From NCBI GenBank assembly GCA_031082155.1, contig JAVHLL010000002.1, positions 65,206-129,205 of the forward strand: 64,000 nucleotides of DNA, in the 5' to 3' direction. Shown here piece by piece: positions 10,764-63,572 of this stretch. Origin of the DNA: Thermodesulfovibrionales bacterium. GTDB taxonomy: Bacteria > Nitrospirota > Thermodesulfovibrionia > Thermodesulfovibrionales > SM23-35. The stretch's first letter is position 1; every line of letters begins with the position of its first letter. A program made the translations under genes and the position numbers. A model generated the notes under the pieces. That model saw nothing but the letters and a program-made list of their open reading frames with translations. It was not told the origin of the DNA and searched no databases.

Positions 10764-11813
10764 ATGCGCCTTTTCAAGAAAAAAACCCTGACAGGGCTAT
10801 CCCGTACGTGCGGCTGAGCAGCGAAAATTGGTCCGTCGGATCTGGCGGAAGCATTAAAAGCGCTTACTCCTTCACAGGATCCTAACCTTCTTGTCGGCTT
10901 CAATACTGCCGATGATGCGGCAGTGTACCGGCTCTCGGATGAGATAGCCTTTATCAGTACTGTTGATTTCATTACCCCGCCGGTGGATGATCCGTATTGG
11001 TTTGGACAAATTGCTGCAGCAAATTCCCTTTCGGATGTTTACGCAATGGGCGGAAAACCTCTTACTGCCCTGAACCTCGTCATGTTTCCTCCAAAGAAAC
11101 TTGACAAGAGCGTTTTGAAGGAAATACTCCATGGGGGGAATGACAAAGTCCTTGAATCCGGTGCTTCTATGGCTGGAGGACATTCTGTGGACGACAATGA
11201 GCCAAAGTATGGTCTTGCTGTTACAGGAATCGTCCATCCCGATAAAATACTGACAAACTGCGGGGCCCGGGAAGGCGATGTTTTGATTCTCACAAAACCA
11301 TTAGGCACCGGGGTCCTGTTTAATGCGTGCAGATCAGGAAAACTGTCATTCAACGAACTGGAAATACTCTTGCCTCAGGTGGCCTCGCTGAATAAAAAAT
11401 CTCTCGATATTGCACGGAGTTTTGACATCCATTCATGTACTGACATTACCGGGTTTGGTATTGTAGGACATTCGTGGGAGATGGCAGCAGGGAGTAGAGT
11501 GCAGATAGACCTTTTCTATAATGAACTGCCGTTTTATCCTCACGCGCTTGAAATGTATCGGAAAGGCGAAACCACTGGTAGCAATAAAGCAAATAGAAAA
11601 CTTTCAGAAGGCCGTCTGGAGATAGCCGCAAAATTGACGAAGGAGGAGGTAGAATTGCTCTTTGATCCGCAAACATCCGGTGGTCTTCTCCTGTCTGTTC
11701 CAGAGTCTCAGTCACAGAAGATGATGAGCGAAATGAAAACCGCCGGTATAGACACTATTGCAAAAATCGGCGAAGTGATAGCAAATCCGAATCCTTGTAT
11801 CAGAGTTATATAG
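10764..11813 (+). CDS. selD: selenide, water dikinase SelD, selenocysteine-containing (in-frame TGA at 10815-10817)
   Basis: ATG 10764 is in frame with track ORF 10923-11813. The product reads MRLFKKKTLTGLSRTCG-U-AAKIGPSDL...DPNLLVGFNTADDAAVY. The TGA sits exactly where E. coli SelD has the catalytic Cys (GxGCKI). Confidence 0.85.
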
Positions 11814-48536: not shown

Positions 48537-48757
48537 ATTCACTACCCCCCGATAAAATCATTTTCTTACTTTTATTAGTATAACACATCAAATACTCTAT
48601 TGTGCCATTACTTTCTTTATGGAAGGTATCAAGAAAATATCTATATATCACGCCTTTTTTATCCAGATTATCTATTGGATTTATAGGTTTTTAATTGCCG
48701 ATAATAAAAAAGATGCGAGGGATGATATTGCTTGCTATTTTTAAAACAAACATCATT

Positions 48758-49228
48758 ATGAAGAGAATGATTGCTTCTCCATGGTCGTACAGGATTGTCC
48801 GTTTCATTATCGGAGCGATATTCATCTATGCAGGCTCAGTGAAACTCATTGATCCGAAAACGTTTGCACATTCAATATCGAGCTATGGGCTTGTTCCTGA
48901 AATTCTTCTCGCGCCGGTAGCAATCGGTCTTCCCGCACTGGAAGTCCTCGCAGGAATCGGCCTTATATTCAATATCCGGGGCAGCCTCACGGTGATTTTC
49001 GGCATGCTCGTCATGTTTGTCGTCGTCCTTTGGTACGGCATTCTTAAGGATATGAACATAGACTGCGGATGTTTCACTCCTGAAGAAATTTTCGAGCAGA
49101 ACAGCCTGCAAAAAGCTTTGTACCGTGACCTGGTCATGATTGGAGCTGTCCTCTATATGTATCTTTATCGGTATACACAGTCACAGCGAAGATTAAGCCA
49201 TAGTTCATGGCTCTTAAAAATACTCTAA
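48758..49228 (+). CDS. MauE/DoxX-family membrane protein
   Basis: IVRFIIGAIFIYAGSVKLIDPKTFAHSISSYGLVPE...LPALEVLAGIGLIF. The start is uncertain because the ORF is open from 48695. Confidence 0.65.
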   Translation: MKRMIASPWSYRIVRFIIGAIFIYAGSVKLIDPKTFAHSISSYGLVPEILLAPVAIGLPALEVLAGIGLIFNIRGSLTVIFGMLVMFVVVLWYGILKDMNIDCGCFTPEEIFEQNSLQKALYRDLVMIGAVLYMYLYRYTQSQRRLSHSSWLLKIL

Positions 49229-49244
49229 GGAGGTAGTACCTGTT

Positions 49245-49757
49245 ATGTTGAAATTCAGGGTTATTCTTATGTTGCTCGTCACCAGTATCTTTCTTGCGAC
49301 AACTGCGGTGAATAGTCATGCGTTATGGGGTACAAAAGAACTGGATACGGAAAAATCCGCGGTGAAACTATCAAGAGAAGTGACACGCGGAGGATATGGT
49401 ATCGTTTCGACCGAAGAATTGAAAAAGTGGACTGATGAGAAAAAAAGAATGCTAATCATCGATACTATGCCCTATGAAGACAGTTACAAAAAGGAGCATG
49501 TACCAGGCGCAGTTCAGTTCGAATTCCCTATCCCGGAAGTCACCTCGCTTGATGACAAGACCAAAGAAGCATTCCTCAAAATGCTTGGTCCGGATAAAGA
49601 CCGTACCATAGTCATTTACTGCGGGTTTGTGAAATGCACACGCAGTCATAATGGCGCAATGTGGGCAGTGAAACTCGGATACAAGAATGTCTACCGCTAT
49701 CCTGGCGGGATAAAAGCATGGAAAGAGGCTGGTTATCCGGTAGACAAAGCAAAATAA
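49245..49757 (+). CDS. secreted rhodanese-domain sulfurtransferase
   Basis: Signal peptide MLKFRVILMLLVTSIFLATTAVNSHA, and a rhodanese fold with active-site loop YCGFVKCTRS and ...GGIKAWKEAGYPV. Confidence 0.8.
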   Translation: MLKFRVILMLLVTSIFLATTAVNSHALWGTKELDTEKSAVKLSREVTRGGYGIVSTEELKKWTDEKKRMLIIDTMPYEDSYKKEHVPGAVQFEFPIPEVTSLDDKTKEAFLKMLGPDKDRTIVIYCGFVKCTRSHNGAMWAVKLGYKNVYRYPGGIKAWKEAGYPVDKAK

Positions 49758-49780
49758 ACTCCTCCATTTCATTTAAAAAA

Positions 49781-49827
49781 CAGGGAGGGGGTGTTCACAG
49801 AAAGTGACCACCCCCTCCCTGTTTTTC
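49781..49827 (+). terminator. Rho-independent terminator
   Basis: ACAGGGAGGGGGTG / CACCCCCTCCCTGT is a 14-bp GC-rich stem followed by TTTTT, about 25 nt after the rhodanese stop. Confidence 0.85.
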
Positions 49828-49912
49828 CCCCTCAAGAAACTTATACCAATTTATATTTTAGCCTCCGTTTGCTACAATAAGAAGAGCAGTCAAATTACCT
49901 GACTTGAAAGAT

Positions 49913-50653
49913 ATGAAAAATCACATCAAGGCATTCCAGCTTTCCCTCCTTGTGCATATTCTGATTATCCTTTCTCTGCTCACCGTCAGCACCCGTCTGA
50001 TGACAAGGGAAACAGTAATGGTCATTAACTTATCAACTCTGGATGTTTTGGAGAAAGAGACTCAGGACCATATGCATCTTCCTTCAGAAGAAATACTCAG
50101 GAACGCAGCAAACACTAGGCAGAAAAATCTCATACAACCATCAAGGCCTGAACTGCCACTGCAAGGTATTCCACAAAAAACAGTCGTGGAATATACAAAA
50201 TCGCCAAGCAGAGAAACACTGCCTGTAACTTCCCCGGAGGAAAAACCAGAGAATGGGTCGACCAGCAAACTGCCTCACTCTGCCGATTTCTCTGCATTCG
50301 CAAGCGGAGTTCTTCTCTCAAGGAATGATGAAGGGGAAAAATCAGCTTCACAGGATATGCCGGTCCCCCCATATACGCTTTATGTGAAGAATAACTTTCT
50401 CTATATCCGTGATTTAATCCAGAAAAACATTACGTATCCCATGCTTGCACGCCATATGGGCTGGCAGGGGAAAGTGACCGTTTCATTCCTCATTCTGAGT
50501 GACGGACGTATCAGTGACATCAAGGTCAAACAAAGCTCGGGGAAAGACATTCTCGACAAAAATGCAGTGGAAACAGTCAAGAGGGCCTCACCCTTCCCTC
50601 CTCCTCCGGTCAAGGCGGAGATTACTGTTCCGGTTGTTTACGCGTTACATTGA
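49913..50653 (+). CDS. TonB-family energy transducer (C-terminal domain protein)
   Basis: N-terminal anchor helix, Pro/Ser-rich spacer and C-terminal YPMLARHMGWQGKVTVSFLILSDGRISDIKVKQSSGKDILDKNAVETVKRASPFPPPP. Confidence 0.8.
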   Translation: MKNHIKAFQLSLLVHILIILSLLTVSTRLMTRETVMVINLSTLDVLEKETQDHMHLPSEEILRNAANTRQKNLIQPSRPELPLQGIPQKTVVEYTKSPSRETLPVTSPEEKPENGSTSKLPHSADFSAFASGVLLSRNDEGEKSASQDMPVPPYTLYVKNNFLYIRDLIQKNITYPMLARHMGWQGKVTVSFLILSDGRISDIKVKQSSGKDILDKNAVETVKRASPFPPPPVKAEITVPVVYALH

Positions 50654-50778
50654 CCGGGGGAATTTCTCTGATGAAGTCAGGCCTTTTCCTGTAAGCTCTC
50701 CCGTCGAGCCTGATCATTCATATCTGATAATAAATACTGTATCCGCCGTATTTACTTGGGAATTCATGATTAACCAGG

Positions 50779-51258
50779 CTATACTCTCAGGGTTGCAGTA
50801 AGCCTTTTAGGATGGAGAAACAGTTCAATCGCATCGATGGGAGACGCTACAAAGATTTGCGATGCACAGAATGTCTTTCGTGAACAGCCCTCCCTGAGAC
50901 ATACAACAATACCGAGCTTTGCTGCTCTCAGCATCCGTGAATCATTGTTTCCGTTTCCAAGCGCTGCTACTCTTTCGGCGCCAAGGCCCTTCACATAATT
51001 TTCCTTTTGTGATGTGTGATCTTCGCCTTCAAGCACTTGGACTATGCAATTTATTCCCTGCAGTTCTTCCCTGGCGCGTCCAAACGTATCCGAGGTTAAT
51101 ATATGAATCTTCAGGTGTTGGGCAAGTTCATTGAGTTTTTCCTTAACCCCTTCCAGAACGATTCCATCCTCGGAAAGAGTTCCCGAAAAGTCCGAGACAA
51201 AATGTTCGAGTTCAAGAAGACCGTATCCCGGTATGTCAAGTACAAACACAGCGAGCAC
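50779..51258 (-). CDS. HAD-superfamily hydrolase (soluble P-type-ATPase-like)
   Basis: 159 aa. FVSDFSGTL (DxxGT-like) and GNGNNDSRMLRAAKLGIVV (the GDGxND motif). Confidence 0.7.
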   Translation of the reverse strand: MLAVFVLDIPGYGLLELEHFVSDFSGTLSEDGIVLEGVKEKLNELAQHLKIHILTSDTFGRAREELQGINCIVQVLEGEDHTSQKENYVKGLGAERVAALGNGNNDSRMLRAAKLGIVVCLREGCSRKTFCASQIFVASPIDAIELFLHPKRLTATLRV

Positions 51259-51393
51259 CTCCCTGTATTTTTATACAGTATAACCAGAAATACAGATAAA
51301 GATAACCACATAAAATATTATCATAGGTGAAAGGTCTGAAAGAGTTGACGTTGCTGGTCATGTAATTCAACCGAACAAGTAAGACAGAACATG

Positions 51394-53313
51394 TTAATGC
51401 AAAACGTGCTCGGTAATATATTCTTCCTGCTCGGTCTCATTTTTCAGTAGTATCCTTATATCCCCTACCCGTCGTGTAACCTGAACAAAATCGAGATAGT
51501 TGAGAAAGTGGATGGCATATTTACTTCCAACTCCGCAACACTGTTTGAATTCCTTAACAGTCATCCCGGATTTCGTACCAAAGAATAATTTTAATTGTTC
51601 TACTATTTTCTTGAATACCGATGATGCGAGATAGAGTGAATCGTTAATTCTTATCAGTAATCCCTGTTTTGTGAGAATTTTCATAATATCCGATGACTTG
51701 CCCGGTTCAATAAGGAGTGACCGACAGATTTCTTCTCTTAGTGGAGGACGACATCCTGCCTTCTCAATAATTGCAAGGACTCTGTTTTTAAGTTCATTGT
51801 CCTCCTGTGATAATAAGGTATTGAATGAGGAAAGCCTTGCAATATCTCTCTCTATAATTAATTCCGGTAATTTGGCAACGATGAAGTCAAAGAACTTTGG
51901 TTGCATATTCAGGCAACTTCTGAGTTCCTCTTTCGGCATTCCGGCTTTGAGGGGATTTCTTTTATGGAAATATATCAGCGCACTTTTCGCGAGCTCTCCA
52001 ATACGGTGAAAAATATTTTTATGCATCAACAAATCGCCGTTCATGAGAATACTACCATTTTTCCTGAGTTCTGTAATAGCATTGTGAATAACCGGGATAT
52101 CTGCATGAATCCAGCCTTCAATGAAAGGAGCAGATATTCCTTGGATACCTGAACGCATTACTTTTGCTTCGATTTTTTCTGTCAGTGAACCGCGCTCCAG
52201 AACAGGCAGGCTTTCAAGATTTTTTCTATGGCTCATTTTATAAGAAGTAGAATCAAGGACCACTCCGCCGCCTATGGTATCAAGCGGTGAAAATCTTCTG
52301 ATTATAAATCTGTCGCCTGACATGACTATAACCGGTTCCTGAAGCCTGAACTGGCAATACCATGATTCACCCGGCGCCATCTTTTTCTTTTCGTATAAAA
52401 TAACCCTCGCCATGTTTTCCGTGGTTCCGATATGGAGATGCACAATATCCCTGTTCTTCAACTCCGGCGCATTGGGAAGGAGTTTCAATTTTGCATCAAT
52501 CACAGCTGAAGGGATGAACCTACCGGGCATAACTACTGCATCCCCCCTTTTTAATGCCTCTTTCTCAACACCCTGAAGGTTAATTGCAACTCTTTGCCCC
52601 GCACAGGCTTTTTCTATGGACTTGCCATGACTATGCAGGCCTCGCACTTTACTTTTAATATTGCTCGGAAGAATATTTACTTCATCATTTAAGGAGATGA
52701 ATCCTGAAACAGCAGTACCTGTTACCACAGTTCCAAACCCTTTTAAGGTAAAAACCCTGTCTATGGGTAAGCGGAAAATGCCCTTTACAGACTTTGGATC
52801 AACTGTGAAAGCAACTGCCCTGATCTTATCTTTGAGGATGTCAATATTCAGCATGGTCTTCGAAGAGACAGGAACAATCTGTGCATTTTCAAGGAATGAG
52901 CCCGCAACAAAGGCCCTGACATCTTCCTTTACCAGATCGAGCCATTCATCGTCTACAATATCTACCTTTGTTATAGCGATAATACCCGTTTTGATTCCCA
53001 GTAAATTACAGATATGAAGGTGTTCCCTGCTTTGCGGCATGACTCCTTCGTCCGCATCGATAACGAGAAGAACCATATCAATTCCGCTCGCTCCTGCAAG
53101 CATATTCCTGATCAGGCGTTCATGTCCCGGCACATCAACTATGCCCACGGTAAGGCCATCAGGATATCTCAAATCAGCAAAACCGAGATCAATCGTTATA
53201 CCTCGTTCTTTTTCTTCCTTGAGACGGTCGGGATCTATCCCGGTGAGGGCTTTTACAAGGGCACTCTTGCCATGATCGATATGTCCTGCTGTTCCGAGAA
53301 TTCTGTAATGCAT
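51394..53313 (-). CDS. selB: selenocysteine-specific elongation factor SelB
   Basis: From ATG 53313 the product reads [46 protein letters not shown]...[12 protein letters not shown]...TKVD. A long winged-helix C-terminal half follows, for 639 aa in total. Confidence 0.9.
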
Positions 53314-53339
53314 GTTTTTCTTTTGGAAGAAATGTTTTT

Positions 53340-53434
53340 TGGAGAAGGGAAGTGGGAATCGAACCCACCATGAGCTTTTCTTCACTCATGCACTGGTTTT
53401 GCAGACCAGGTGAGGCCCCAGCCCCCTACCCTCC
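53340..53434 (-). tRNA. tRNA-Sec-like tRNA (8/5 acceptor/T, long variable arm) with GCA (Cys) anticodon and U73
   Basis: The reverse complement is GGAGGGTAGGGGGCTGGGGCCTCACCTGGTCTGCAAAACCAGTGCATGAGTGAAGAAAAGCTCATGGTGGGTTCGATTCCCACTTCCCTTCTCCA. Acceptor GGAGGGUA/UUCCCUUC, T arm GUGGG-UUCGAUU-CCCAC, anticodon arm CUGGU-CUGCAAA-ACCAG, variable stem CAUGAG/CUCAUG, and CCA encoded. Confidence 0.8.
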
Positions 53435-53653
53435 AGTTGAATTATTATATTTATTATTACAATATGTCAAATAGATTAATTCAATATAATACGAATAATA
53501 TATTTAATTCATTAATGTCATCCCTTAATTCTATGTATATTTTCTAATATATAGTTATTATCTATTTTAATTATGATGATTAATTATGTTTAAAATACAA
53601 TATCAGAATTTAAAGCAACCATACTTAAACAACAACTTCAAAGGAGGATTTAT

Positions 53654-54949
53654 ATGTCCAAGGATTATAAGCAGATGTGGAGTGATCTTGAGATAAACCT
53701 TGATGCCCATGACGGGCTACTGGGTGTTCTCTCGGATGCGTATACGAACATTTATCTTTCACAAAAAAACCGTCCGGAAGGGATGAAATACTTCGATTTT
53801 GTCATTTCTGAAGTGCATGGCCTCAGGATAGAAGAGATTGTCGAGGCAAAGAAACAGGGTAGAAAGGTTATCGGTACTTTTTGTGTTTATGTGCCGGAGG
53901 AACTGATTCTAGCGGTGGACGGGGTCGATATCGGTCTCTGTGCCGGCGCCGATGTAGGTACTGACGAGGCAGAGAAATACATCCCCAGGAATACCTGTGC
54001 GCTCATCAAGGCATTCATGGGTTTCAAGCTCGCCGGACTCTGCCCCTATGTCCAGACTGCCGATCTTATCGTTGGCGAGACAACCTGCGACGGAAAGAAA
54101 AAGGCCTATGAACTGTTTAATGAAATGACGAAAGGTAAAGTTTATGTAATGGAAATTCCGAATAAAAAGGGAGAAGACGGCAAAACCCTCTGGTTGAACG
54201 AGGTTCAACGATTCGCTGCAAAACTTGAAGGAATAAGCGGCAAAAAGATAACTCCCGAAAAGCTCAAAGAAGCATCAAAGGTTGTAAATGAAAAGAGGAA
54301 AGCCCTTCAACGTCTGGCTTCTCTCCGTTCGGCAGACCCTTCTCCCATTTCAGGGCTTGATGCCCTGCTTGTGAATCAGGTTGCCTTCTATGATGATCCG
54401 TTGCGTTTTACTGCAAAGGCGAATGAACTCTGTGATGAACTGACGGAAAGGGTCAAAACAGGCAAAGGAGTTTCGGCGAAGGGAAGTCCCCGAATTCTAA
54501 TCTCCGGTTCGCCTATGGCGATTCCGAACTGGAAGATACATGCAATTGTTGAAGGAAGCGGCGCAACGATTGTCGGTGAAGAGTCATGCGTAGGGGAGAG
54601 GAACTTTGCGTCACTCATGGATGAAAACTTTTCCTCTCTGAATGAGGGAATGCGGAATATCGCAGACCGCTATCTCACCATAAACTGCGCCTGCTTTACT
54701 CCTAATGACGAGCGGCTCACTGATATCGAAACCATTGCGAAAAGAGTAAAAGCAGACGGCATTCTTCACTATGCCATACAGTTCTGCACGCCTTACATGA
54801 TTGAAGCGACAAAAGTGAAGAAAGTTACAGACAAAATGAAAATGCCTTTTCTTCGTATTGAAACAGACTATAGTATGGAAGACATGGGACAGCTCAAAAC
54901 AAGGATTGAAGCATTCCTTGAGATGATAGGGAACGGCACAAGAGTGTGA
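53654..54949 (+). CDS. 2-hydroxyacyl-CoA dehydratase-family / double-cubane-cluster (DCCP, YjiM-like) reductase
   Basis: 431 aa. KVIGTFCVYVPEELILA...GLCAGAD...PRNTCALIKAF...GETTCDGKKKAY... shows the conserved Cys pattern of the HgdB/BcrC/YjiM family. A strong AAAGGAGG RBS lies upstream. Confidence 0.75.
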   Translation: MSKDYKQMWSDLEINLDAHDGLLGVLSDAYTNIYLSQKNRPEGMKYFDFVISEVHGLRIEEIVEAKKQGRKVIGTFCVYVPEELILAVDGVDIGLCAGADVGTDEAEKYIPRNTCALIKAFMGFKLAGLCPYVQTADLIVGETTCDGKKKAYELFNEMTKGKVYVMEIPNKKGEDGKTLWLNEVQRFAAKLEGISGKKITPEKLKEASKVVNEKRKALQRLASLRSADPSPISGLDALLVNQVAFYDDPLRFTAKANELCDELTERVKTGKGVSAKGSPRILISGSPMAIPNWKIHAIVEGSGATIVGEESCVGERNFASLMDENFSSLNEGMRNIADRYLTINCACFTPNDERLTDIETIAKRVKADGILHYAIQFCTPYMIEATKVKKVTDKMKMPFLRIETDYSMEDMGQLKTRIEAFLEMIGNGTRV

Positions 54950-55689
54950 GAATTGGCGGTATTGATATTGGCTCAAGGTACATCAAATATGTGCTCCTTG
55001 AGGGTAATTCAATCCTCGATTTCAAAAAGAGGGAGACAGGACATAATCCGTTGTCGGTATGTAAAGAACTCCTTACAGTAAACCGTCCGGAAAAAATTGT
55101 CGCCACAGGGTATGGAAGATATTTGCTTGAAGTATTCGGTGATATCAGGACGATAACGGAAATAAAAGCGGTAGCAAAAGGGGTAAAGGCAATTTTTCCC
55201 CTTTGCAGGACAATTATCGATATAGGGGGACAGGACACGAAGGTAATCAGTCTGTCAGATCAGGGATCAGTCGTGAATTTTGAGATGAACGATCGTTGTG
55301 CAGCAGGAACGGGGAGATTTATCGAGATCATGTCCAGAGCGCTCGGTTATGATCTCGATCATTTCGGGGCTTCCTGCAACAGCAGGTCCGGTAATGTTAA
55401 AATAAACAGCATGTGTACGGTCTTTGCTGAATCAGAGGTTATCAGTCTTATTGCGAAAGGTGAAAAGAGAGAAGTAATTGCGTATTCCATCCATGATTCG
55501 ATTGCGAGTAAAGTCATCTCTATGGTAAAGCGGATAGATATTCAGGATGACATTGTTTTCGCAGGAGGATGCGCCCGGAACCCATGTCTCAGGAGGATAC
55601 TGGAAGAACGATTACAAAAAACGCTTTATGTTCATGAAAATCCCTATATGCACGCTGCGTATGGCGCGGCGCTCTATGCGGATATATAA
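54946..55689 (+). CDS. BcrAD/BadFG/HgdC-type ATPase activase (YjiL-like)
   Basis: GTG start overlaps the previous stop (GTGA). IGGIDIGSRYIKYV...DIGGQDTKVI...MNDRCAAGTGRFIE...CTVFAESEVIS is the ASKHA fold with the bridging-[4Fe-4S] Cys motifs. Confidence 0.85.
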   Translation: MRIGGIDIGSRYIKYVLLEGNSILDFKKRETGHNPLSVCKELLTVNRPEKIVATGYGRYLLEVFGDIRTITEIKAVAKGVKAIFPLCRTIIDIGGQDTKVISLSDQGSVVNFEMNDRCAAGTGRFIEIMSRALGYDLDHFGASCNSRSGNVKINSMCTVFAESEVISLIAKGEKREVIAYSIHDSIASKVISMVKRIDIQDDIVFAGGCARNPCLRRILEERLQKTLYVHENPYMHAAYGAALYADI

Positions 55690-55694
55690 TTGCA

Positions 55695-56738
55695 ATGGAG
55701 ATTTCACCAAAATTAGCAGAAAAAGCGCGTGCTGCAGGTTGAGCTTCAAAGATAAGTCCGTCGGACTTATCAGATATACTCGACGGCTTGCCTGCCAGCA
55801 AGGATCCGAATCTTCTTGTCGGGATTGAAACATCGGACGACGCAGGAGTATACCGCCTCACCCCTGAGATAGCCCTGATACAGACCCTTGATTTCTTCAC
55901 GCCGATAGTGAATGATCCCTATGATTTTGGTCGTATCGCTGCAGCCAATTCATTAAGCGATGTATATTCTATGGGAGGGAAGCCCCTTACAGCGATGAAT
56001 ATCGTCTGCTTTCCTATCAAAGAAATGGACAAGTCGGTTCTCCGGTCAATTCTTGAAGGAGGACTTGAGGTCATTCATAAATCCGGGGCCGTTATGGTTG
56101 GCGGGCATAGCGTGGAAGATCCGGAACTTAAATACGGACTCTCCGTAACTGGTGTTGTTCATCCTGAGCATTTCCTGAAAAATTCCGGAGCCAGACCGGG
56201 AGATATGCTTGTTCTTACCAAACCTTTGGGCACCGGTGTGCTTGCTACAGCATTGAAGGGACGTCTCCTTGATGATCGGACGACCAGCGTACTGACTGAT
56301 TTGATGGCAACCCTGAACAAAGATGCAGCGGAAGTTATGTCTGAAACAGGCGTAAATGCCTGTACCGATATAACGGGGTTCGGCCTTATCGGACATGCGC
56401 TCGAAATGGCCAAGGCCAGCAACGTCGGTATGCGCATTTATGCCGATAAAGTCCCGGTTATCCCGGAGGCCAAAAGCTTTGCCGCGATGGGAATGATTCC
56501 GGCCGGAAGTCATCTGAACCGTAAATTCTGTGCTCATCATCTCGACATCAGCCCTTCTATAAATCCTATTCTTTTGGATCTCTTTTCGGATGCGCAGACA
56601 TCAGGCGGTCTTCTCATCTCTGTTCCTGCACAAAAAATTCATACTCTTGTCCAGGGACTTCTTGAAAGGGAAACTCCCGCAGCCCACGTTATAGGAGAGG
56701 TGATCTCTGGACCGTCAGGAGTCATCCAGATACGGTAA
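55695..56738 (+). CDS. selD: selenide, water dikinase SelD, selenocysteine-containing (in-frame TGA at 55740-55742)
   Basis: ATG 55695 is in frame with track ORF 55788-56738. The product reads MEISPKLAEKARAAG-U-ASKISPSDL...DPNLLVGIETSDDAGVY. A perfect hairpin at 55751-55771 lies downstream of the TGA. Confidence 0.9.
55751..55771 (+). promoter_or_regulatory. SECIS-like hairpin of selD
   Basis: GATAAGTCC-GTC-GGACTTATC is a perfect 9-bp stem beginning 8 nt after the UGA. Confidence 0.6.
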
Positions 56739-56744
56739 ATATTC

Positions 56745-57011
56745 ATGACAGTATATGCAGTCATAACCTTTCATAACACGCATTTTGCGCTCAAGGCTAA
56801 AAAAGTCCTCGAAAAAAACGGAAAAACCGTCGAGACAATCCCCGTTCCCCGTGAATTCAGTTCAGAGTGCGGGTTCTGCTGTAAGGTACCGTGGGACGAG
56901 AGAGATATGGCTGATAAAATTCTCAGGGAGCATGATGTACAAGTAGAACATATCTACCGCTGGGAAAGAGACGATGATAAAGAGAGGAAAAATAAATTTA
57001 CGTTTGTATAA
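56745..57011 (+). CDS. DUF3343 (putative S/Se carrier-like) protein
   Basis: 88 aa. AVITFHNTHFALKAKKVLEKNG...IPVPREFSSECGFCC matches the recalled DUF3343 pattern, which is commonly found next to yedF. Confidence 0.65.
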   Translation: MTVYAVITFHNTHFALKAKKVLEKNGKTVETIPVPREFSSECGFCCKVPWDERDMADKILREHDVQVEHIYRWERDDDKERKNKFTFV

Positions 57012-57026
57012 AAGAGGAGGCAAGGT

Positions 57027-57638
57027 ATGGCTTATCAGATTGATGCAAGAGGATTGCCCTGTCCTCAGCCTGTTTTAAAAACAAAGGAAGCCCTTGGGCG
57101 GGCAAAAGGGTCATCTTTGATTGTTATTATCGACAATGAGGCCTCAAGGGATAATGTTATAAGATTTCTTGAGAATTCCGGAGTTACTCTTGAGAAAGTC
57201 GAGACCAGAGGAAATGATTTTTTTATTCATACAAAGGAAACAGCATACAGTGTCTCGTCCGGGATTAAACCTGAAGACTATCCATGTGCAGTTCCCTCGG
57301 GAGCCGGATCTGCTCTTTTCATTAATAAGGACCGTATCGGACATGGGAGCGATGAACTGGGAACAAACCTTATGAAGGCTTTTATCACGACAATAAAAGA
57401 CCTCTCTGTTCAACCGAAAACCATCTGTTTCATGAACAGCGGGGTAAAGCTGACGGTGAAAGAGGCGGCAACCCTTCCCTATCTGAAAGAATTAGAAGAG
57501 AAAGGGATAGAAATGCTGGTTTGCGGTACCTGTCTCAGTTACTTTAACCTCAAAGAACAAATCGGCGTCGGAAAAATATCCAATATGTACGATATATCGG
57601 AAACCATGCTGAAGTCTTCTAAAGTAATAACCCTATAG
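57027..57638 (+). CDS. yedF: selenium metabolism protein YedF (TusA/SirA-like + DsrE-like domains)
   Basis: N-terminus IDARGLPCPQPVLKTKEAL (the CPxP motif of the TusA family), and a C-terminal half with the DsrE-like ...VCGTCLSYF... segment. At 203 aa it is typical of YedF. Confidence 0.8.
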   Translation: MAYQIDARGLPCPQPVLKTKEALGRAKGSSLIVIIDNEASRDNVIRFLENSGVTLEKVETRGNDFFIHTKETAYSVSSGIKPEDYPCAVPSGAGSALFINKDRIGHGSDELGTNLMKAFITTIKDLSVQPKTICFMNSGVKLTVKEAATLPYLKELEEKGIEMLVCGTCLSYFNLKEQIGVGKISNMYDISETMLKSSKVITL

Positions 57639-57643
57639 GGTCT

Positions 57644-58810
57644 ATGCCAAGCTGGGTTATGGGTACAAAAGTTATCTACTTTGACAATGCTGCAACATCC
57701 GGCAGGAAACCTGTAACGGTTTCGCACGCCATATGCGACTGCCTCAAACACGCAAACGCGAATCCCGGGAGATCAGGACATTCCCTTTCGGTGAAGGCTG
57801 CCGAGATAATTTATTCGTGCCGTGAAATTCTTGGTGAATTATTCAACTTCCCTAAAACAGAAAATATAGTCCTGACAAAAAATGCAACCGAAGCATTGAA
57901 TCTCGCCCTCTATGGCGGGCTGAAGAACGGCTGTGAAGTCATAACCACCTCGATGGAACACAATTCTGTGCTGAGGCCCCTGAATCATCTGCACAACAAG
58001 GGCATCATCCGTTTATATATCTTAAGTGCTGATGGAAATGGTGTGGTCCATCCGAAGCAGATAAAGGAAGCCATTACTGAAGACACAAGTCTCATTGTCG
58101 TCACTTCTGCCTCTAATGTCACCGGTACAAAGATGGATTTGCAGGGTATATATCACGCTGCACAAGAAGCCGGAGTAAAAATGCTTGTTGACGGCGCACA
58201 GGGAGCCGGAGCACTGAGAATAGATCTGAAAGAAACACCATTCGATTTTCTTGCGGTTACTGGACACAAGCATCTCTTCGGCCCTCAGGGCACCGGCGCC
58301 CTGATTATAAAGAATGCAGATGATCTGGACTCCTTCATGCGAGGCGGCACCGGAAGTCAGTCGGAAATGACAATACATCCTGATTTTCCACCCGACAAAT
58401 ATGAGGCAGGAACTCTGAATACTCCTGGATACGCAGGTCTGGTTGCAGGGATACGGTTCATTCTTGATGAAGGCCTGGAGAAAATCGTTGGATATGAACA
58501 TGAGCTGACAGAATATCTTCTCGGAAAACTGGCAGATATCGAGGAGATACAACTATATGCACCCGATGCAGACCGTGTTGCCACGGTATCGTTTAATATT
58601 CAGGGCACACCTCCTTCTGATGTTGCGTATTTTCTGGACAGGGAATGGGGCATATGTGCAAGATCCGGTCTCCATTGCGCTCCGGAAGCGCATAAAACAC
58701 TGGGCACGTTTTCAGGAGGAACAATCAGGTTTTCTTTTTCATTTTTTAATACGAAAGAGGAAATTGACAGTGCAATAGAGGCGCTGAAGGATTTTGTGAA
58801 ACACAGATAG
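57644..58810 (+). CDS. class V aminotransferase-fold cysteine desulfurase / selenocysteine lyase-like enzyme
   Basis: IYFDNAATS..., TGHKHL (PLP Lys) and active-site ARSGLHCAPEAH. Confidence 0.85.
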   Translation: MPSWVMGTKVIYFDNAATSGRKPVTVSHAICDCLKHANANPGRSGHSLSVKAAEIIYSCREILGELFNFPKTENIVLTKNATEALNLALYGGLKNGCEVITTSMEHNSVLRPLNHLHNKGIIRLYILSADGNGVVHPKQIKEAITEDTSLIVVTSASNVTGTKMDLQGIYHAAQEAGVKMLVDGAQGAGALRIDLKETPFDFLAVTGHKHLFGPQGTGALIIKNADDLDSFMRGGTGSQSEMTIHPDFPPDKYEAGTLNTPGYAGLVAGIRFILDEGLEKIVGYEHELTEYLLGKLADIEEIQLYAPDADRVATVSFNIQGTPPSDVAYFLDREWGICARSGLHCAPEAHKTLGTFSGGTIRFSFSFFNTKEEIDSAIEALKDFVKHR

Positions 58811-58893
58811 ATGCAAGAGGCTTACAGCCTGTTGCATCTATTGTCCAATAATTGACTATGCATTAATACCTTAAGATATATCAGGCATCTATT

Positions 58894-60771
58894 ATGGAAG
58901 ATTCTCCGGATATCCAGACAGAAAAAAAGAAGGTTATCGCCAAGGATTTCAGTCATCTCAATATACACGAGAACCTCAAGACTGAGTTTTCGGTCATTTC
59001 CGGAAAATGCATACAATGCAAGCTTTGTCAGAAAGAGTGCGCGTTCCTCGGCAAATATGGAAAACCAAAGGATATCACCGATTCGTACGATCCCGGAAAC
59101 ACTGCACATCAGGGAATGCCGTTTGAATGCAGTCTCTGTCAGCTCTGCGCATCTGTCTGTCCGGTAAAGATCAACCCGGCACGCATGTTTCTTGAAATGA
59201 GACGTGAAACCGTCAGAAAAGGAAAAGGCGATTATCCTGAACATAGCGTCATTCTTGGATATGAAAAGCGTGGCGCCTCGAAACGGTATTCATACTATGC
59301 GCTTCCGGATAGCTGTGACACTGTCTTCTTCCCCGGCTGCACTCTACCGGGTACCCGTCCCAATCAGGTGCTGAAACTTTATGAACATCTGAAGAAAACT
59401 ATACCTTCTCTTGGCATTGTGCTTGATTGTTGCACAAAGCCCTCGCATGACCTTGGAAGAGAGCGGTTCTTTCAGGCAATGTTCCAGGAGATGAAGGGGT
59501 ATCTGGCAAGAAATGGCATACGCACTGTCATTGTAGCCTGCCCGAACTGTTATAAGATTTTTCAACAATATGGGAGAGATGAACTTTCTGTTGTTACCGT
59601 TTATGAAGTTATGGCAGAAAAAGGTCTTCCTGAAACCGGCCAGGTGGCGGGAAGTATTACTGTTCATGACTCCTGCGGAGTAAGATTCGAAGAAAATATT
59701 CACGAATCGGTACGAAACATAGTAAAGAAAAGAGGCTTGCAGATCGACGAAATGAAGCACAGCGGGAAAAAAACGCTCTGCTGCGGGGAAGGAGGGTCAG
59801 TCGGTTTCCTGAATCCTGACCTATCCAGGAAATGGAGTTTCCTGAGAAAAACTGAAGCGGACGGGAGAAAAATGGTTGCATATTGTGCGGGATGCGCCAA
59901 CCTCCTCAATTCGATCACCCCCACGAGCCATATTCTGGACCTCACCTTTGAACCGGAAAACGCTGTTGCAGGAACAGTGAAGGTTTCCAAAGCTCCATTC
60001 ACATACTTCAACCGTCTCAGGCTAAAAAAGCATTTTAAAAACACACTCCTTGCTACAAAAACGAGAGAGAGAACATTCTTTGCAGGTGAAGAAAAGGGGA
60101 AAGTACAATGGTTAAAGCGTATAATAATTCTTTTCATCATTCTGTCTGCTATCCTTGCCATACGGTTTACCGATGCAACCCAGTACCTTGAACAGGACAC
60201 CCTCAGAGGCCTGATTCAGGGTTATGGTGTACTGGCTCCGGTTATCTATATGCTGATATATACTGTGGCGCCTGCCTTGTTTTTACCCGGACTTCCCCTC
60301 ACTATTGCAGGAGGCATCCTCTTCGGACCCTTATGGGGAGTTGTCTATACTATTACAGGCGCCACTCTGGGCGCCTGCGTGGCTTTTCTTATATCACGAT
60401 ATGTTGCCAGGGAATGGTTAGCAAACAAATGCAGAAGCCCCAGATGGAGAAGACTTGACAAAGGTGTTGAGAAGCACGGCTGGAAAATTGTTGCGTTTAC
60501 GCGCCTCATACCAATATTTCCTTTTAATCTTCTGAACTATGCATTCGGACTTACAAAGATACCATTTCTGCACTATGCCGTCACAACATTTCTCTTTATG
60601 CTGCCGGCCTGCATTGCTTTTATAGTCTTCTCGAGTTCTCTTCTGGACATCTTGAAAGGGAAGATATCCCCTATTTTCCTTATAGGGGTTGGTCTTATTG
60701 TGCTGGTTTTGTTACTTCCTTATGTTTACAGACGTTACAAGGCAAAAAAAGGCGAATCAGAACCTCTCTGA
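58894..60771 (+). CDS. fusion protein: 2x[4Fe-4S] ferredoxin + CCG (HdrD/GlpC-like) domains + DedA/TVP38 membrane domain
   Basis: CIQCKLCQKEC and CSLCQLCASVCP, then CCG-type motifs FFPGCTLPG...LDCCTKP and HDSCGVR...LCCGEGG. The C-terminal ~220 aa are polytopic with LPGLPLTIAGGILFGPLWG...FTRLIPIFPFNLLNYAFGLT, the DedA/SNARE-associated signature. Confidence 0.75.
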   Translation: MEDSPDIQTEKKKVIAKDFSHLNIHENLKTEFSVISGKCIQCKLCQKECAFLGKYGKPKDITDSYDPGNTAHQGMPFECSLCQLCASVCPVKINPARMFLEMRRETVRKGKGDYPEHSVILGYEKRGASKRYSYYALPDSCDTVFFPGCTLPGTRPNQVLKLYEHLKKTIPSLGIVLDCCTKPSHDLGRERFFQAMFQEMKGYLARNGIRTVIVACPNCYKIFQQYGRDELSVVTVYEVMAEKGLPETGQVAGSITVHDSCGVRFEENIHESVRNIVKKRGLQIDEMKHSGKKTLCCGEGGSVGFLNPDLSRKWSFLRKTEADGRKMVAYCAGCANLLNSITPTSHILDLTFEPENAVAGTVKVSKAPFTYFNRLRLKKHFKNTLLATKTRERTFFAGEEKGKVQWLKRIIILFIILSAILAIRFTDATQYLEQDTLRGLIQGYGVLAPVIYMLIYTVAPALFLPGLPLTIAGGILFGPLWGVVYTITGATLGACVAFLISRYVAREWLANKCRSPRWRRLDKGVEKHGWKIVAFTRLIPIFPFNLLNYAFGLTKIPFLHYAVTTFLFMLPACIAFIVFSSSLLDILKGKISPIFLIGVGLIVLVLLLPYVYRRYKAKKGESEPL

Positions 60772-61566
60772 GTTATGAGAGAGATACCCTTTTATTTCAT
60801 CCTCGGCAGTTTTGAATGCAAATTCATGATAATATCTTTTTAAAGCCGCTTCATCAAATATTGCTTTTCCGTCTTTGTCCTGATAATTTTTACTTAACAC
60901 ACATGCAAGCTGTTCTTCTCCTTCTTTCCAGTTCTGGCCTAGGATATCCTCTATTTCCTTTCCTGAATGCACGTTCCGGAGTGGCATGAAAAGTTCCAGA
61001 TCAAAGCTTTTCAGAAATTCGCTATAGGCATCCAGGGCAACCCCTGTCTGGTTGACTTTCACCTTGCCGTCGTGAGACTCCCTTTCACCTCCAATTACAA
61101 CAGTACAATTCAGCAGTTTTGCTAAAGGGATCCTGATGGCATGAAAATACAGATGGCATCCTAAACAAGGAGTAAAATAACCGTATTTTTTAAACAGTTC
61201 CGTGGTATATCTACCGCAGAGTTTCCACCAGAATCGCGGAGAACCGAGCACAATTGCGCTGAATACCCTTATGTCCTCTTTTTCAAGCTTCTCCTTCATA
61301 AGTTCTGTCTTCCCGAAAGGAATTTTCCAGTTGCCGTATTCCGTTCCGGTAAATGCGATAGTCGGAACAATAGCCCTGATGTCTCGAACCCTGCAGGCCC
61401 TGATGACTGCTGCGACACTGTCTCTCCCGGCTATTTCTGCAATCGCAACATTCTCTATTCCCCGTATTTCTGCTCTCGTTTCATCAGAAAACATCCATTC
61501 GGGAAACTCTGCCACAAGTTCAGGTTTGTTTGCCAGGATTTCTAAAAGTTCATTCTCTTTGTTCAT
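60757..61566 (-). CDS. uncharacterised protein, possible PP-loop-like (adenine nucleotide alpha-hydrolase) fold
   Basis: 269 aa. AIAEIAGRDSVAAV resembles a degenerate SGGxDS PP-loop, and there is a CLGCHLY motif. The assignment is tentative. Confidence 0.4.
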   Translation of the reverse strand: MNKENELLEILANKPELVAEFPEWMFSDETRAEIRGIENVAIAEIAGRDSVAAVIRACRVRDIRAIVPTIAFTGTEYGNWKIPFGKTELMKEKLEKEDIRVFSAIVLGSPRFWWKLCGRYTTELFKKYGYFTPCLGCHLYFHAIRIPLAKLLNCTVVIGGERESHDGKVKVNQTGVALDAYSEFLKSFDLELFMPLRNVHSGKEIEDILGQNWKEGEEQLACVLSKNYQDKDGKAIFDEAALKRYYHEFAFKTAEDEIKGYLSHNSERF

Positions 61567-62861
61567 AGGGTTAAAGAGGTGTAATCTCCGGGATAATACG
61601 GTTGATCGACCGGGGTATCCATAAGCCCCTGGAGTTTTGACCTGTCAAGGAAATTAAGGATTAGATACAATAATTCCTTCCCCTTTACGATACCGAGAGC
61701 CCCTTTCGCGCAGCTTATTTCATTGTAGTGAGTGACATCGTCTTTCCGGACATATTTCCCGACCATTGTGAGCGGCACTGTCTCACCGGTATGGATCATG
61801 GCACCGGAGCTTGCAGTAGAATGGTCAGCAGTGATGACCAGCAGGTTCTCCTTGTCCGGTGCGATTTCGCCTACTGCAACAGACATTGCACGGTCAATCG
61901 CCTCTATTACCTCTTTTTTGTACCACGGGTTTTTTGTATGGCCTGCTTCATCAGGCATTTTTGTATGAACATGAATAAAATCATACTCATATGCATCTTT
62001 TGCAAGCCGGAGGCGATATTTTAGGTCTTCCTCAACGTTCCCTGTATCCTTGACTTTCATGAGGTCCATCCCCAATTCATTGCAGAGCCCCCAGTAAATC
62101 GGTCCGGATGAAATGGACAAGGCCTTCATACCCCACTTTTCCCTGAAAGGGATCTGTTTTTTCTTTCTCCCGGCTCTCTGGGTAACAAGGGCATTGACAG
62201 GGAGGAGATTCGCTGTTCTTCTCTGTTTATTGATATCATGGCCCGACAATACCCGATAACACCATACGAGGTATTCATTTAACGTCGCTGCCGTATTTTT
62301 CGAAGACTGTGTAAAACGCTTCTGCTGGACCGGAAAAACCTTTATAACTTCCCTTCCCTCATATATAGGGTCAGAATCGGTTATTTTTTCAGATACATTC
62401 CCTTTCAGGAGAAGAAACCCGCGTATACCCTTCGCATGAAACAGTTCAAAGTGGATTCCGTTCTTCTGAAAACTCCGTATCGATTCCTTCAGCACACGCC
62501 CCTCTTCGTTCCCGAGTTCAGGACACCCATAGGTCAGGACAAGATTGTCTCCGCGTTCTTCAACAGAACATAAATGACAGAGGAGCGCTACATTTTTCTC
62601 TCCCACCGGGATGCCTGCTCCCTTTGCTTCGATATACCCTCTTCCCGGGAACTCTTCCCCTTCATACCCGAAGATTAAAAAGTGCGCGGTCTCGCTCGAC
62701 ATGGGAACGCCCTGGTAAAAGCTGTGGTACAGCCCGTTCATCCCGATCGATGCAAGATAATCCATATGGGGAGTATATGCCGCATAAAGGGGAGTCCTTC
62801 CTTCAAAACAGTCCTGTCCCCTGTCCCCCAGACCATCCAGTATGACGAGAATACACCGCAT
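61563..62861 (-). CDS. cofactor-independent phosphoglycerate mutase-like metalloenzyme (ApgM/alkaline-phosphatase superfamily)
   Basis: MRCILVILDGLGDRG...TP.MD.LA..G..G...HVHTKMPDEAGH...ITADHST... matches the recalled archaeal-type iPGM pattern. Confidence 0.7.
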   Translation of the reverse strand: MRCILVILDGLGDRGQDCFEGRTPLYAAYTPHMDYLASIGMNGLYHSFYQGVPMSSETAHFLIFGYEGEEFPGRGYIEAKGAGIPVGEKNVALLCHLCSVEERGDNLVLTYGCPELGNEEGRVLKESIRSFQKNGIHFELFHAKGIRGFLLLKGNVSEKITDSDPIYEGREVIKVFPVQQKRFTQSSKNTAATLNEYLVWCYRVLSGHDINKQRRTANLLPVNALVTQRAGRKKKQIPFREKWGMKALSISSGPIYWGLCNELGMDLMKVKDTGNVEEDLKYRLRLAKDAYEYDFIHVHTKMPDEAGHTKNPWYKKEVIEAIDRAMSVAVGEIAPDKENLLVITADHSTASSGAMIHTGETVPLTMVGKYVRKDDVTHYNEISCAKGALGIVKGKELLYLILNFLDRSKLQGLMDTPVDQPYYPGDYTSLTL

Positions 62862-62975: not shown

Positions 62976-63572
62976 ATGATCATCGATATGCATGTCCATA
63001 CCCGTTTTTCGCCCTGCAGTGTTATGCGCATAACCCAACTATTGCAGAGCGCAAAGAAAAAGGGACTGAACGGCGTGTGCATCACTGATCACGACACGAC
63101 CGGCTCTTCATCTGCGCTTCGAAACATACAGGATGAGTACGGGGTCTTTGTTATTGTCGGGATAGAATATACCACAAAACAGGGGGATTTCCTCGTCTTT
63201 GGTCCTGTCGAATTTATCCTAAAAGGCTCCGATGCAGAGGATCTCCTGCGCTGGACTGAAAAGGAGGGCTGCATAGCTATTCCTGCCCATCCTTTCAGGA
63301 AAAGCCGGCCGTCAGATACGAGCATCCTCAAATCCTTCGGCATCATTGAACTGCTGAACGGAAGGAATCAACCGTCAGAAAACGACGCATGCAGGGTCTG
63401 GATCGAACAACAGGGGAATGGAACACGAACAATCGGCGGAAGCGACGCACATACAGCTGATGAACTAGGCCGCGCAGTAACTGTTTTTGAAAAGGATATT
63501 TTTTCTTCTGAAGATTTGATTCGCGAACTTCGTTATGGCCGTTATGCTCCGCGTTCCATGTATCGCCGGTAA
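62976..63572 (+). CDS. PHP-domain metal-dependent phosphoesterase
   Basis: MIIDMHVHTRFSPCS...GVCITDHDT...AHPF...GGSDAHT are PHP His/Asp motifs. Confidence 0.8.
   Translation: MIIDMHVHTRFSPCSVMRITQLLQSAKKKGLNGVCITDHDTTGSSSALRNIQDEYGVFVIVGIEYTTKQGDFLVFGPVEFILKGSDAEDLLRWTEKEGCIAIPAHPFRKSRPSDTSILKSFGIIELLNGRNQPSENDACRVWIEQQGNGTRTIGGSDAHTADELGRAVTVFEKDIFSSEDLIRELRYGRYAPRSMYRR

Follow-up and report, generated by a model that had tools for sequence, protein, structure and literature searches.

Why should an ATP-driven iron-sulfur reductase of the double-cubane type, a kind that works at extremely low potential, be encoded among genes of selenium metabolism? The question is raised by a 64,000-nt stretch of DNA (hereafter the window; assembly GCA_031082155.1, contig JAVHLL010000002.1, positions 65,206 to 129,205 of the forward strand) from the metagenome-assembled genome of a sulfate-reducer-type member of the Thermodesulfovibrionales. 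An initial reading of the bare letters (the original prediction) had placed seven same-strand genes at 53654–60771, and the list of open reading frames (ORFs) has all seven on the + strand at those coordinates; they encode a double-cubane cluster protein (DCCP), its ATP-dependent reductase, SelD, a DUF3343 protein, YedF, a class-V cysteine desulfurase and an HdrD–DedA fusion. The tight packing claimed for them was borne out, with intergenic gaps of −4, 5, 6, 15, 5 and 83 nt in order, the first being a GTGA start/stop overlap (54946–54949) at the junction of the DCCP and ATPase genes; the small gaps and the one overlap suggest translational coupling. Curated profile models (NCBIfam, TIGRFAM and Pfam) agreed with every family call. 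The locus is an unusually complete new case of a gene association that had been noticed before but never explained, and the DCCP pair is very probably tied to selenium metabolism in some functional way.

The first gene (53654..54949, + strand) encodes a class-I DCCP recognized by NF040772 (477.6 bits against a cutoff of 350). The 431-aa protein aligned with the C. hydrogenoformans DCCP (6ENO/7YYL) at 494 bits and 50% identity over 422 columns, only 3 of them gapped (residues 4–425 against 3–421), and its architecture is that of class I, in which proteins of about 420 aa have their channel closed by an N-terminal extension. A regular-expression search found the seven-cysteine motif by which DCCPs are defined, CX19CX18-19CX29CX166-170CX32-34CX32C (PMC7317905), intact at residues 77–378, with X18 in the first spacer, and all its cysteines are invariant across 12 DCCP orthologs. 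The overlapping second gene (54946..55689, + strand) encodes the cognate DCCP reductase, an archerase/activase ATPase (TIGR00241, 221 bits; PF01869), and such pairs stand together at almost every one of the 82 loci surveyed below. The NF040772 match, the motif, the N-terminal extension and the adjacent archerase are all shared with the DCCP/DCCP-R pair of C. hydrogenoformans (CHY_0487/0488; 6ENO, 7YYL), which has no stated genomic link to selenium, whereas the window pair is embedded in a selenium island. On these sequence criteria the 53654 gene is an ortholog of class-I DCCP, and its product is predicted to carry an [8Fe-9S] cluster and to perform ATP-driven reduction of a small molecule. 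The C. hydrogenoformans enzyme is active on acetylene, hydrazine and azide and has as its cofactor an all-sulfur [4Fe4S]-μ2S-[4Fe4S] cluster (PMC7317905, PMC9351452), which neither dithionite nor Ti(III) citrate reduces (PMC9351452). The physiological substrate of DCCP is stated to be unknown (PMC9351452), and we found no paper assigning one in the literature searched.

Identity as an acyl-CoA dehydratase or benzoyl-CoA reductase was considered and ruled out by the curated cutoffs, the seven-cysteine motif and the class-I architecture. The 53654 protein reached 120 bits against a cutoff of 700 on HadC, 96 against 454 on BzdN and 74 against 421 on BcrC, and 28–120 bits against cutoffs of 421–750 over the dehydratase and benzoyl-CoA reductase equivalogs as a whole. 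Such enzymes are expected to have two paralogous catalytic subunits, whereas the island holds a single HGD-D gene. Class-I DCCPs, in the classification of the Dobbek group, have channels so narrow that CoA esters are judged not to fit (PMC7317905). No in-frame TGA aligned with a conserved cysteine was found in the 82 DCCP orthologs; apart from the natural C termini, there was a stop in one locus only (L018), likely due to a sequencing error or a pseudogene. As a separate observation, a second HGD-D/DCCP paralog (30–37% identity) stands beside the DCCP ortholog, with one shared ATPase, in about ten loci (L001 7371–8534, L013, L023 12231, L036, L055, L063, L073, L075, L082 and L083), and such pairs could form a heteromer or serve a second substrate.

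The linkage of DCCP to selenium genes was surveyed in one genome per species. We kept the best 80 of at least 596 matches (56–83% identity), which together with loci from two look-ups gave 82 non-redundant species-level loci from Nitrospirota, Desulfobacterota, Chloroflexota, Spirochaetota, Bacteroidota and other phyla; flanks extended to at most 10 kb and many contigs were short, so that the linkage frequencies are lower bounds. Neighbours were scored by tBLASTn with the window proteins and by a tRNA scan and, separately, by all-versus-all clustering of every ORF. Within the available flanks, selenium marker genes (YedF, SelD, SelB, DUF3343, LysR_Sec_metab or IscA_HesB_Se) or a selC/selC* tRNA gene lay near DCCP in 25 of the 82 loci: YedF in 14, selC/selC* in 9, SelD in 7, SelB in 5, IscA/HesB_Se in 4, LysR_Sec_metab in 4 (6 by ORF clustering) and DUF3343 in 3. 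At a generous background of 3% the binomial P value for this count is about 1e-18 or lower, and the linkage exceeds chance. In unbiased ORF clustering YedF ranked first among the neighbour families once DCCP and the ATPase are set aside, all 13 members being TIGR03527 proteins, and same-strand, adjacent DCCP–ATPase–YedF triads occur in several Desulfobacterota, in Syntrophorhabdus and in others. The selenium LysR regulator (NF040786, 310 bits) often flanks the DCCP–ATPase pair where no other selenium gene is visible.

Gene orders varied among these loci, from DCCP–ATPase–YedF and selC–DCCP to SelB–desulfurase–YedF–DUF3343–SelD–DCCP and a divergent arrangement in L001; it follows that the association was repeatedly maintained or reassembled. 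The DCCP pair is physically linked to selenium genes in the window and in L001, L020, L023, L024, L052, L074, L081, L110, L118 and L172. Conservation of the link between the reductase/activase pair and selD/yedF had been set beforehand as a check on the original prediction, and the outcome was positive across lineages. In the converse survey of 80 metagenome loci found with the YedF profile, SelD was present in 34, DUF3343 in 23, the desulfurase in 18 and DCCP in 3 (2 of the 38 loci of at least 6 kb), where we had expected to meet it often; DCCP therefore joins the common SelD–YedF–desulfurase–DUF3343 core only occasionally, and this made selenide supply by DCCP less likely in our view.

Comparison with related genomes set the limits of the locus. 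The seven genes of the original prediction proved to be the core of a larger unit, spanning 48695–60771. Two related contigs show synteny with the window, in collinear order from SecA to HypC, and in the related genome L173 both flanks are joined directly, without any of the 13 island genes or the tRNA: there, a triad of PHP-domain, apgM-like and PP-loop genes directly abuts HypC, whereas the same two flanks lie 12.2 kb apart in the window. An intermediate form, L002, has only an HAD-like gene, DCCP, the ATPase and LysR_Sec_metab between the flanks. The insert in the window holds MauE-like, rhodanese, TonB-like and HAD-like genes, a selB paralog (selB*), a Sec-shaped tRNA gene (selC*) and the seven core genes. 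Because the flanks are joined directly in L173 and an intermediate exists in L002, we regard the seven genes as the core of a discrete 12.2-kb accessory selenium island (48.6–60.8 kb).

The original prediction presented a role for such a reductase/activase pair in selenium metabolism as undescribed, which was overstated, as three prior reports connect these families. Haft (2022; bioRxiv 10.1101/2022.07.06.499078, section 24; published as Haft & Gwadz 2023) found 955 of 970 NF040772 proteins (98%) in SelD-containing genomes and nine methanogen DCCPs in genomes without SelD, and offered three readings: that DCCP processes selenium compounds, that it belongs to a pathway with selenium-dependent steps, or that its cofactor is selenium-bridged. 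That work, like ours, ties DCCP to selenium, by co-occurrence and by adjacency to a selenoprotein-rich locus; it differs in linking DCCP to the SAO transporter/MerB-like system and to SelD at the whole-genome level only, with no mention of YedF or DUF3343, whereas we noticed no SAO genes in the window and find operon-level selD–yedF linkage instead. In Table 1 of Lin (2015; PMC5322559) an activase and a dehydratase-family subunit are among the top STRING partners of YedF, DUF3343, YedE and LysR_Se; the paper does not comment on them and could separate no selenium-specific DUF3343 branch. The Slackia heliotrinireducens cluster described there (Shel_25300-25470) resembles the island: its mutual STRING partners include YedF, DUF3343, a protein of the Sec-lyase family, SelD, SelA/SelB and LysR_Se, together with a ‘CoA-substrate-specific enzyme activase’ and a ‘2-hydroxyglutaryl-CoA dehydratase subunit’, the last two of which we liken to the DCCP pair by description only. 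In contrast to that cluster, the island is without LysR_Se and YedE and adds selC*/selB*, a MauE–rhodanese pair and HdrD–DedA. Finally, a figure legend in a 2023 preprint (PMC10418091) gives DCCP and DCCPR as putative genes of selenium metabolism.

Downstream of the DCCP pair, selD (55695..56738, + strand) encodes a selenophosphate synthetase (TIGR00476, 388 bits against a cutoff of 125). The reading frame has a TGA at codon 16 (UGA 55740–55742) in the context ‘AAGUASK’, a SECIS-like hairpin lies at that codon (55738..55784, + strand; −23.3 kcal/mol, z −3.61, with 0 of 200 shuffles as stable), and six orthologs have TGA or a cysteine codon in the same alignment column; for these reasons we take the island SelD to be a selenoprotein. 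The window also holds a second selD (10764–11813, + strand), solitary after an adenine-deaminase-like gene, with its own in-frame TGA (‘SRTCGUAAKIG’) and 49% identity to the island copy. Proteins of this second type, 72–74% identical to it, stand beside DCCP or YedF in L023, L024 and L097. The SelD found beside YedF is usually of the island type, in 37 loci against 8 for the second type.

Three candidate carriers or carrier-loading enzymes follow. The DUF3343 protein (56745..57011, + strand; PF11823, 79 bits), a putative selenium or sulfur carrier, has a CGFCC motif with cysteines at 42, 45 and 46. YedF (57027..57638, + strand; TIGR03527, 206 bits against a cutoff of 110) combines a TusA-like and a DsrE-like domain, and its characteristic residues are invariant: C12 in the CPxP motif (C12-P13-x-P15) and C166 and C169 in CGTC. 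The class-V cysteine desulfurase/selenocysteine-lyase-like protein (57644..58810, + strand; TIGR01977, 423 bits against a cutoff of 377) has the pyridoxal phosphate lysine at position 209 and Cys345 in ‘SGLHCA’. Assignment of the latter as the selenocysteine lyase SclA (NF040779) was rejected at 313.7 bits, below the cutoff of 525.

The last core gene (58894..60771, + strand; Pfam Fer4_8, CCG and VTT_dom) marks the right end of the island and encodes an HdrD-like protein, with two [4Fe-4S] sites and two CCG domains, fused to a DedA/VTT membrane domain. As in HdrD/HdrB-type CCG reductases, two CXnCCXnCXXC motifs accompany two ferredoxin-type motifs: CxxCxxC occurs at 39 and 79, complete CCG domains at 141–219 and 261–334, and transmembrane segments at 403–614. 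The NF045663 ‘diclust_near_Sec’ oxidoreductase was rejected as its identity (247.7 bits against 530, matching profile positions 303–671 only); compared with that family the flavoprotein (pyridine-nucleotide-disulfide oxidoreductase) part is missing and a DedA domain is appended. As a family the fusion is conserved (more than 120 clusters at 60% identity or higher), and it adjoins DCCP in L005 and L172. In three other long-contig contexts its neighbours differ, being unrelated genes in one case, genes of the YdjY/MerB-like kind in another and multi-rhodanese genes in the third; these rule it out as an obligate partner. The original prediction had made it a module of the selenium system, and we treat its membership as lineage-specific. 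In L087/L088 (11543–12181) a 168-aa MerB-like ORF followed by a 41-aa ORF lies beside HdrD–DedA, a second VTT protein and YdjY, and by analogy this split ORF resembles the SaoL selenoprotein, which is usually cut at its Sec codon. A further side observation is a 7-bp hairpin, GATGCAA...TTGCATC, without a T-tract, at 58812–58839 (+ strand) in the 83-nt gap before the fusion gene, which may be a processing or attenuation site.

Upstream, the core is divided from a tRNA gene and selB* by a divergent spacer (53437..53653) of 217 nt with 17.5% GC, against 44.3% for the window. The original prediction of divergence from a Sec-like tRNA–selB pair across an AT-rich spacer thus held for layout and composition; the anticodon of the tRNA turned out to be the cysteine anticodon GCA. 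No sigma-70 consensus was found on the + strand of the spacer in a consensus scan, and promoter and terminator consensus scans gave counts no better than shuffled sequences, hence no evidence for an operon. An 11/12 sigma-70-like promoter lies at 53470–53441, upstream of selC*. The latter (53344..53436, − strand; tRNA-Cys gca in ARAGORN, 93 nt) scored 56 bits on the Rfam tRNA-Sec model RF01852, above the gathering score of 47. Downstream of it lies the SelB paralog (selB* in the sense of Mukai 2016; 51394..53313, − strand; TIGR00475, 360 bits); the listed ORF begins at 53385, overlapping the tRNA, and its Met25 is the likely start. Splitting SelB* from canonical SelB by identity gave no clear separation. 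The arrangement matches the selC*/SelB* systems of Mukai (2016; PMC5389517), in which a Sec-shaped tRNA with a cysteine anticodon is followed by a second SelB, a likeness that rests on the anticodon, the tRNA-Sec profile and the gene order. Our search of that paper's text met no description of the neighbouring genes; in the window the tRNA adjoins DCCP. Such cysteine-anticodon tRNAs adjoin DCCP in the window, L001 (9868–9959), L007 (4329–4425), L015, L017, L023 (14087–14178) and L110 (about 7797), and a normal tRNA-Sec does so in L016, L020, L052 and L056; a tRNA of either kind stands directly beside DCCP in nine surveyed DCCP loci, plus L110.

The left part of the island begins with a MauE/DoxX-like membrane protein (48695..49228, + strand; PF07291 MauE, 92 bits) with a DCGCF motif, followed by a secreted single-domain rhodanese with a CxxxxC active-site loop (49245..49757, + strand; PF00581). 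The MauE-like gene always adjoins the rhodanese gene and is beside DCCP in 6 loci; the rhodanese recurs in 7 DCCP loci, and the pair is directly beside DCCP in 6–7 other loci. The rhodanese aligns with profile positions 9–159 of NF045694 (TsoB, a rhodanese/DsbD-fusion selenoprotein) at 111.6 bits, below the cutoff, with CxxxxC where TsoB has UxxxxU; the MauE-like protein and the rhodanese look like a split, all-cysteine version of the two-Sec TsoB. A TonB C-terminal domain protein follows (49904..50653, + strand; PF03544); it lies inside the 12.2-kb insertion and does not recur in the other loci, and its membership in the selenium system is uncertain. A small HAD/P-type-ATPase-like protein with weak HAD matches (50779..51258, − strand) recurs beside DCCP or YedF in L002, L007, L080, L110, L152 and L153.

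On the right flank, a conserved hypothetical protein of 269 aa (orf269; 60757..61566, − strand) is modelled with a PP-loop, thiolation-enzyme-like fold (AF2 pLDDT 87). Pfam and PDB sequence searches gave no match; the best Foldseek match was the 6-thioguanine PP-loop enzyme YcfA (TM 0.6–0.75), followed by MnmA/TrmU, QueC and NcsA. AGRDS, C117, C134, C137, H138 and C222 are invariant, and the gene is beside selD–yedF in L092, L154, L165 and L171, so that orf269, judged from its modelled fold, is a candidate thio- or seleno-transfer enzyme possibly associated with the selenium system. Its constant partner is an ApgM-like metalloenzyme-superfamily phosphotransferase gene (61563..62861, − strand; TIGR00306, 329 bits against a cutoff of 320), and the divergent partner of this pair encodes a PHP-domain phosphoesterase (62976..63572, + strand), 54% identical to the PHP protein of L172; the triad keeps the same arrangement in L171, L172 and L173. 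Three further families were seen in other loci. A fused radical-SAM/DUF3641/methyltransferase protein (the arsenosugar ArsS domain set plus a methyltransferase; L171 13354–15339, L172 11040–12875), not present in the window, is beside SelD in L171 and between a membrane-anchored 569-aa DCCP and the ATPase in L172. A PstS/PstC/PstA/PstB-like ABC transporter with a TIGR02136-type binding protein, which may be an oxyanion uptake system, is beside DCCP–ATPase in six to seven loci (L036, L038, L054, L058, L080 17755–20374, L082). A protein of about 170 aa with only a weak ParE-like match, likewise not in the window, is beside DCCP in ten or more (L002 13269–13763, L009, L044, L054, L056, L076, L079, L082, L118, L172 9776–10276).

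What, then, might the DCCP pair do for selenium metabolism? From the identities of the genes, the limits of the island and the linkage, recurrent across phyla, of the DCCP pair to YedF, SelD, selC, SelB and the selenium LysR, we infer a substrate, a direction of selenium flow, a role for each carrier and co-transcription of the genes. The best explanation, which we hold tentatively and at somewhat less than even odds, is that DCCP supplies SelD with selenide by reducing, at the cost of ATP, selenium of the Se(0) oxidation level. Such selenium, elemental or sulfide-bound, may be captured from a sulfidic habitat or may instead arrive as a perselenide on protein, which the class-V desulfurase would form from selenocysteine. 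It would be relayed on carrier cysteines, those of the rhodanese and its MauE partner outside the membrane and those of YedF and DUF3343 inside, and HdrD–DedA would couple membrane passage to the reduction of S–S or S–Se bonds. The ATP-hydrolysing reductase would charge DCCP one electron at a time, DCCP would perform the hard two-electron step to selenide, and the co-encoded SelD would turn selenide into selenophosphate. By our estimate from textbook standard potentials, the Se(0)/HSe− couple stands near −0.7 V (pH 7, 1 M) and at about −0.45 to −0.55 V at nM–μM selenide. Because it lies below ferredoxin, an ATP-driven reductase would be justified, while S(0)/HS− is not a low-potential couple. 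An analogue, and an analogy only, is the TusA–DsrEFH–DsrC–DsrK sulfur relay of sulfur oxidisers and sulfate reducers, which likewise joins a TusA-/DsrE-like carrier (fused as YedF in the window) to a CCG reductase of HdrD/DsrK type; the window differs in having neither DsrC nor a heme/quinone membrane subunit, in a DedA domain that takes their place and in the additional ATP-driven DCCP.

Several points weigh against selenide supply by DCCP. ATP-coupled reduction feeding SelD is chemically sensible, but at least two rival explanations fit equally well. The dependence runs from DCCP to selenium, matching the whole-genome count of Haft (2022), as would also be expected if DCCP were a client of selenium; and most SelD–YedF systems work without it, since DCCP is present in only 3 of the 80 YedF loci. 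The reduction of a protein perselenide should need no such low potential. Many genomes encode at least two DCCP paralogs, often next to each other (see also Haft 2022), which is odd for the supply of a trace element, and methanogens have DCCPs without SelD (Haft 2022). YedF, DUF3343, rhodanese, desulfurase and CCG proteins would suit sulfur trafficking just as well, and HdrD–DedA is often found away from DCCP.

The same asymmetry, with DCCP nearly always accompanied by SelD (Haft 2022) and present in only about 4–5% of YedF loci, would suit DCCP as a consumer of selenium, with SelD, YedF, DUF3343 and the desulfurase feeding a selenium-containing double-cubane cofactor, for example one with a bridging selenide, which Haft (2022) lists as a formal possibility. 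IscA/HesB_Se carriers (NF038090, 94.5 bits) directly upstream of DCCP in 4 loci fit such a role, as do the island's own selD despite the second genomic copy at 10764–11813 and control by the selenium LysR, by which DCCP would be made only when selenium is available. However, the C. hydrogenoformans ortholog is active with an all-sulfur cluster, the island has no evident transferase that depends on selenophosphate, DCCPs of methanogens are found in genomes lacking SelD (Haft 2022) and none of the 82 DCCP orthologs has a Sec codon. We therefore consider this consumer role unlikely; the stricter proposition, that DCCP requires selenium in its own metal cluster and that SelD, YedF, DUF3343 and the desulfurase are its private maturation line, we hold to be slightly more so, and if true it would make selenium in a double-cubane cluster a further selenium-utilisation trait.

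The same chance as for the consumer role attaches to the view that DCCP reduces an unrelated small molecule, in an anaerobic pathway that has selenoenzymes of its own or is merely induced when selenium is available, and that the clustering reflects co-regulation by selenium or shared ecology rather than shared chemistry. Haft (2022), who ties DCCPs to the SAO organometallic system, deems explanations of this sort plausible; there is a diversity of DCCP paralogs and classes, some 70% of the DCCP loci have no selenium gene in the flanks seen, and some loci have formate-dehydrogenase-like genes. Yet the commonest neighbours are selenium/sulfur carriers and machinery, not structural genes of selenoenzymes; the DCCP–ATPase–YedF triads look like operons, and the island in the window has no obvious catabolic partner. 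That the whole is a sulfur system, a persulfide or polysulfide relay with DCCP as its reductase and selD a mere neighbour borrowing the carriers, seems improbable. Every carrier family (TusA, DsrE, Rhodanese, Aminotran_5, CCG) does have sulfur-handling relatives, and Lin (2015; PMC5322559) found no separable selenium-specific DUF3343 branch; against this, selenium-specific models were matched (TIGR03527, NF040786, NF038090), selC/selC* and SelB are directly beside DCCP in 9 loci, and DCCP co-occurs with SelD at 98% (Haft 2022). Sulfur reduction would, moreover, find an ATP-driven reductase unnecessary at the potential of S(0)/HS−. An ordinary 2-hydroxyacyl-CoA dehydratase/benzoyl-CoA reductase module placed beside selenium genes by chance, as the Pfam family (PF06050, HGD-D) and the JGI names of homologs (BcrC/BadD/HgdB) might suggest, is extremely unlikely given the low equivalog scores, the single catalytic subunit, the seven-cysteine motif, an architecture that excludes CoA esters and a linkage that recurs in many phyla in different gene orders.

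Two questions thus meet in this island: the natural substrate of DCCP, and the way in which strict anaerobes of sulfidic environments come by selenide for SelD. The conserved linkage at operon level narrows the candidates for that substrate to selenium chemistry and, as the window enzyme is orthologous to the purified and crystallised DCCP/DCCP-R of C. hydrogenoformans, the idea is testable at once in an existing in vitro system. If DCCP supplies selenide, selenium assimilation would gain an ATP-dependent step; if it consumes selenium, there would be a new cofactor.

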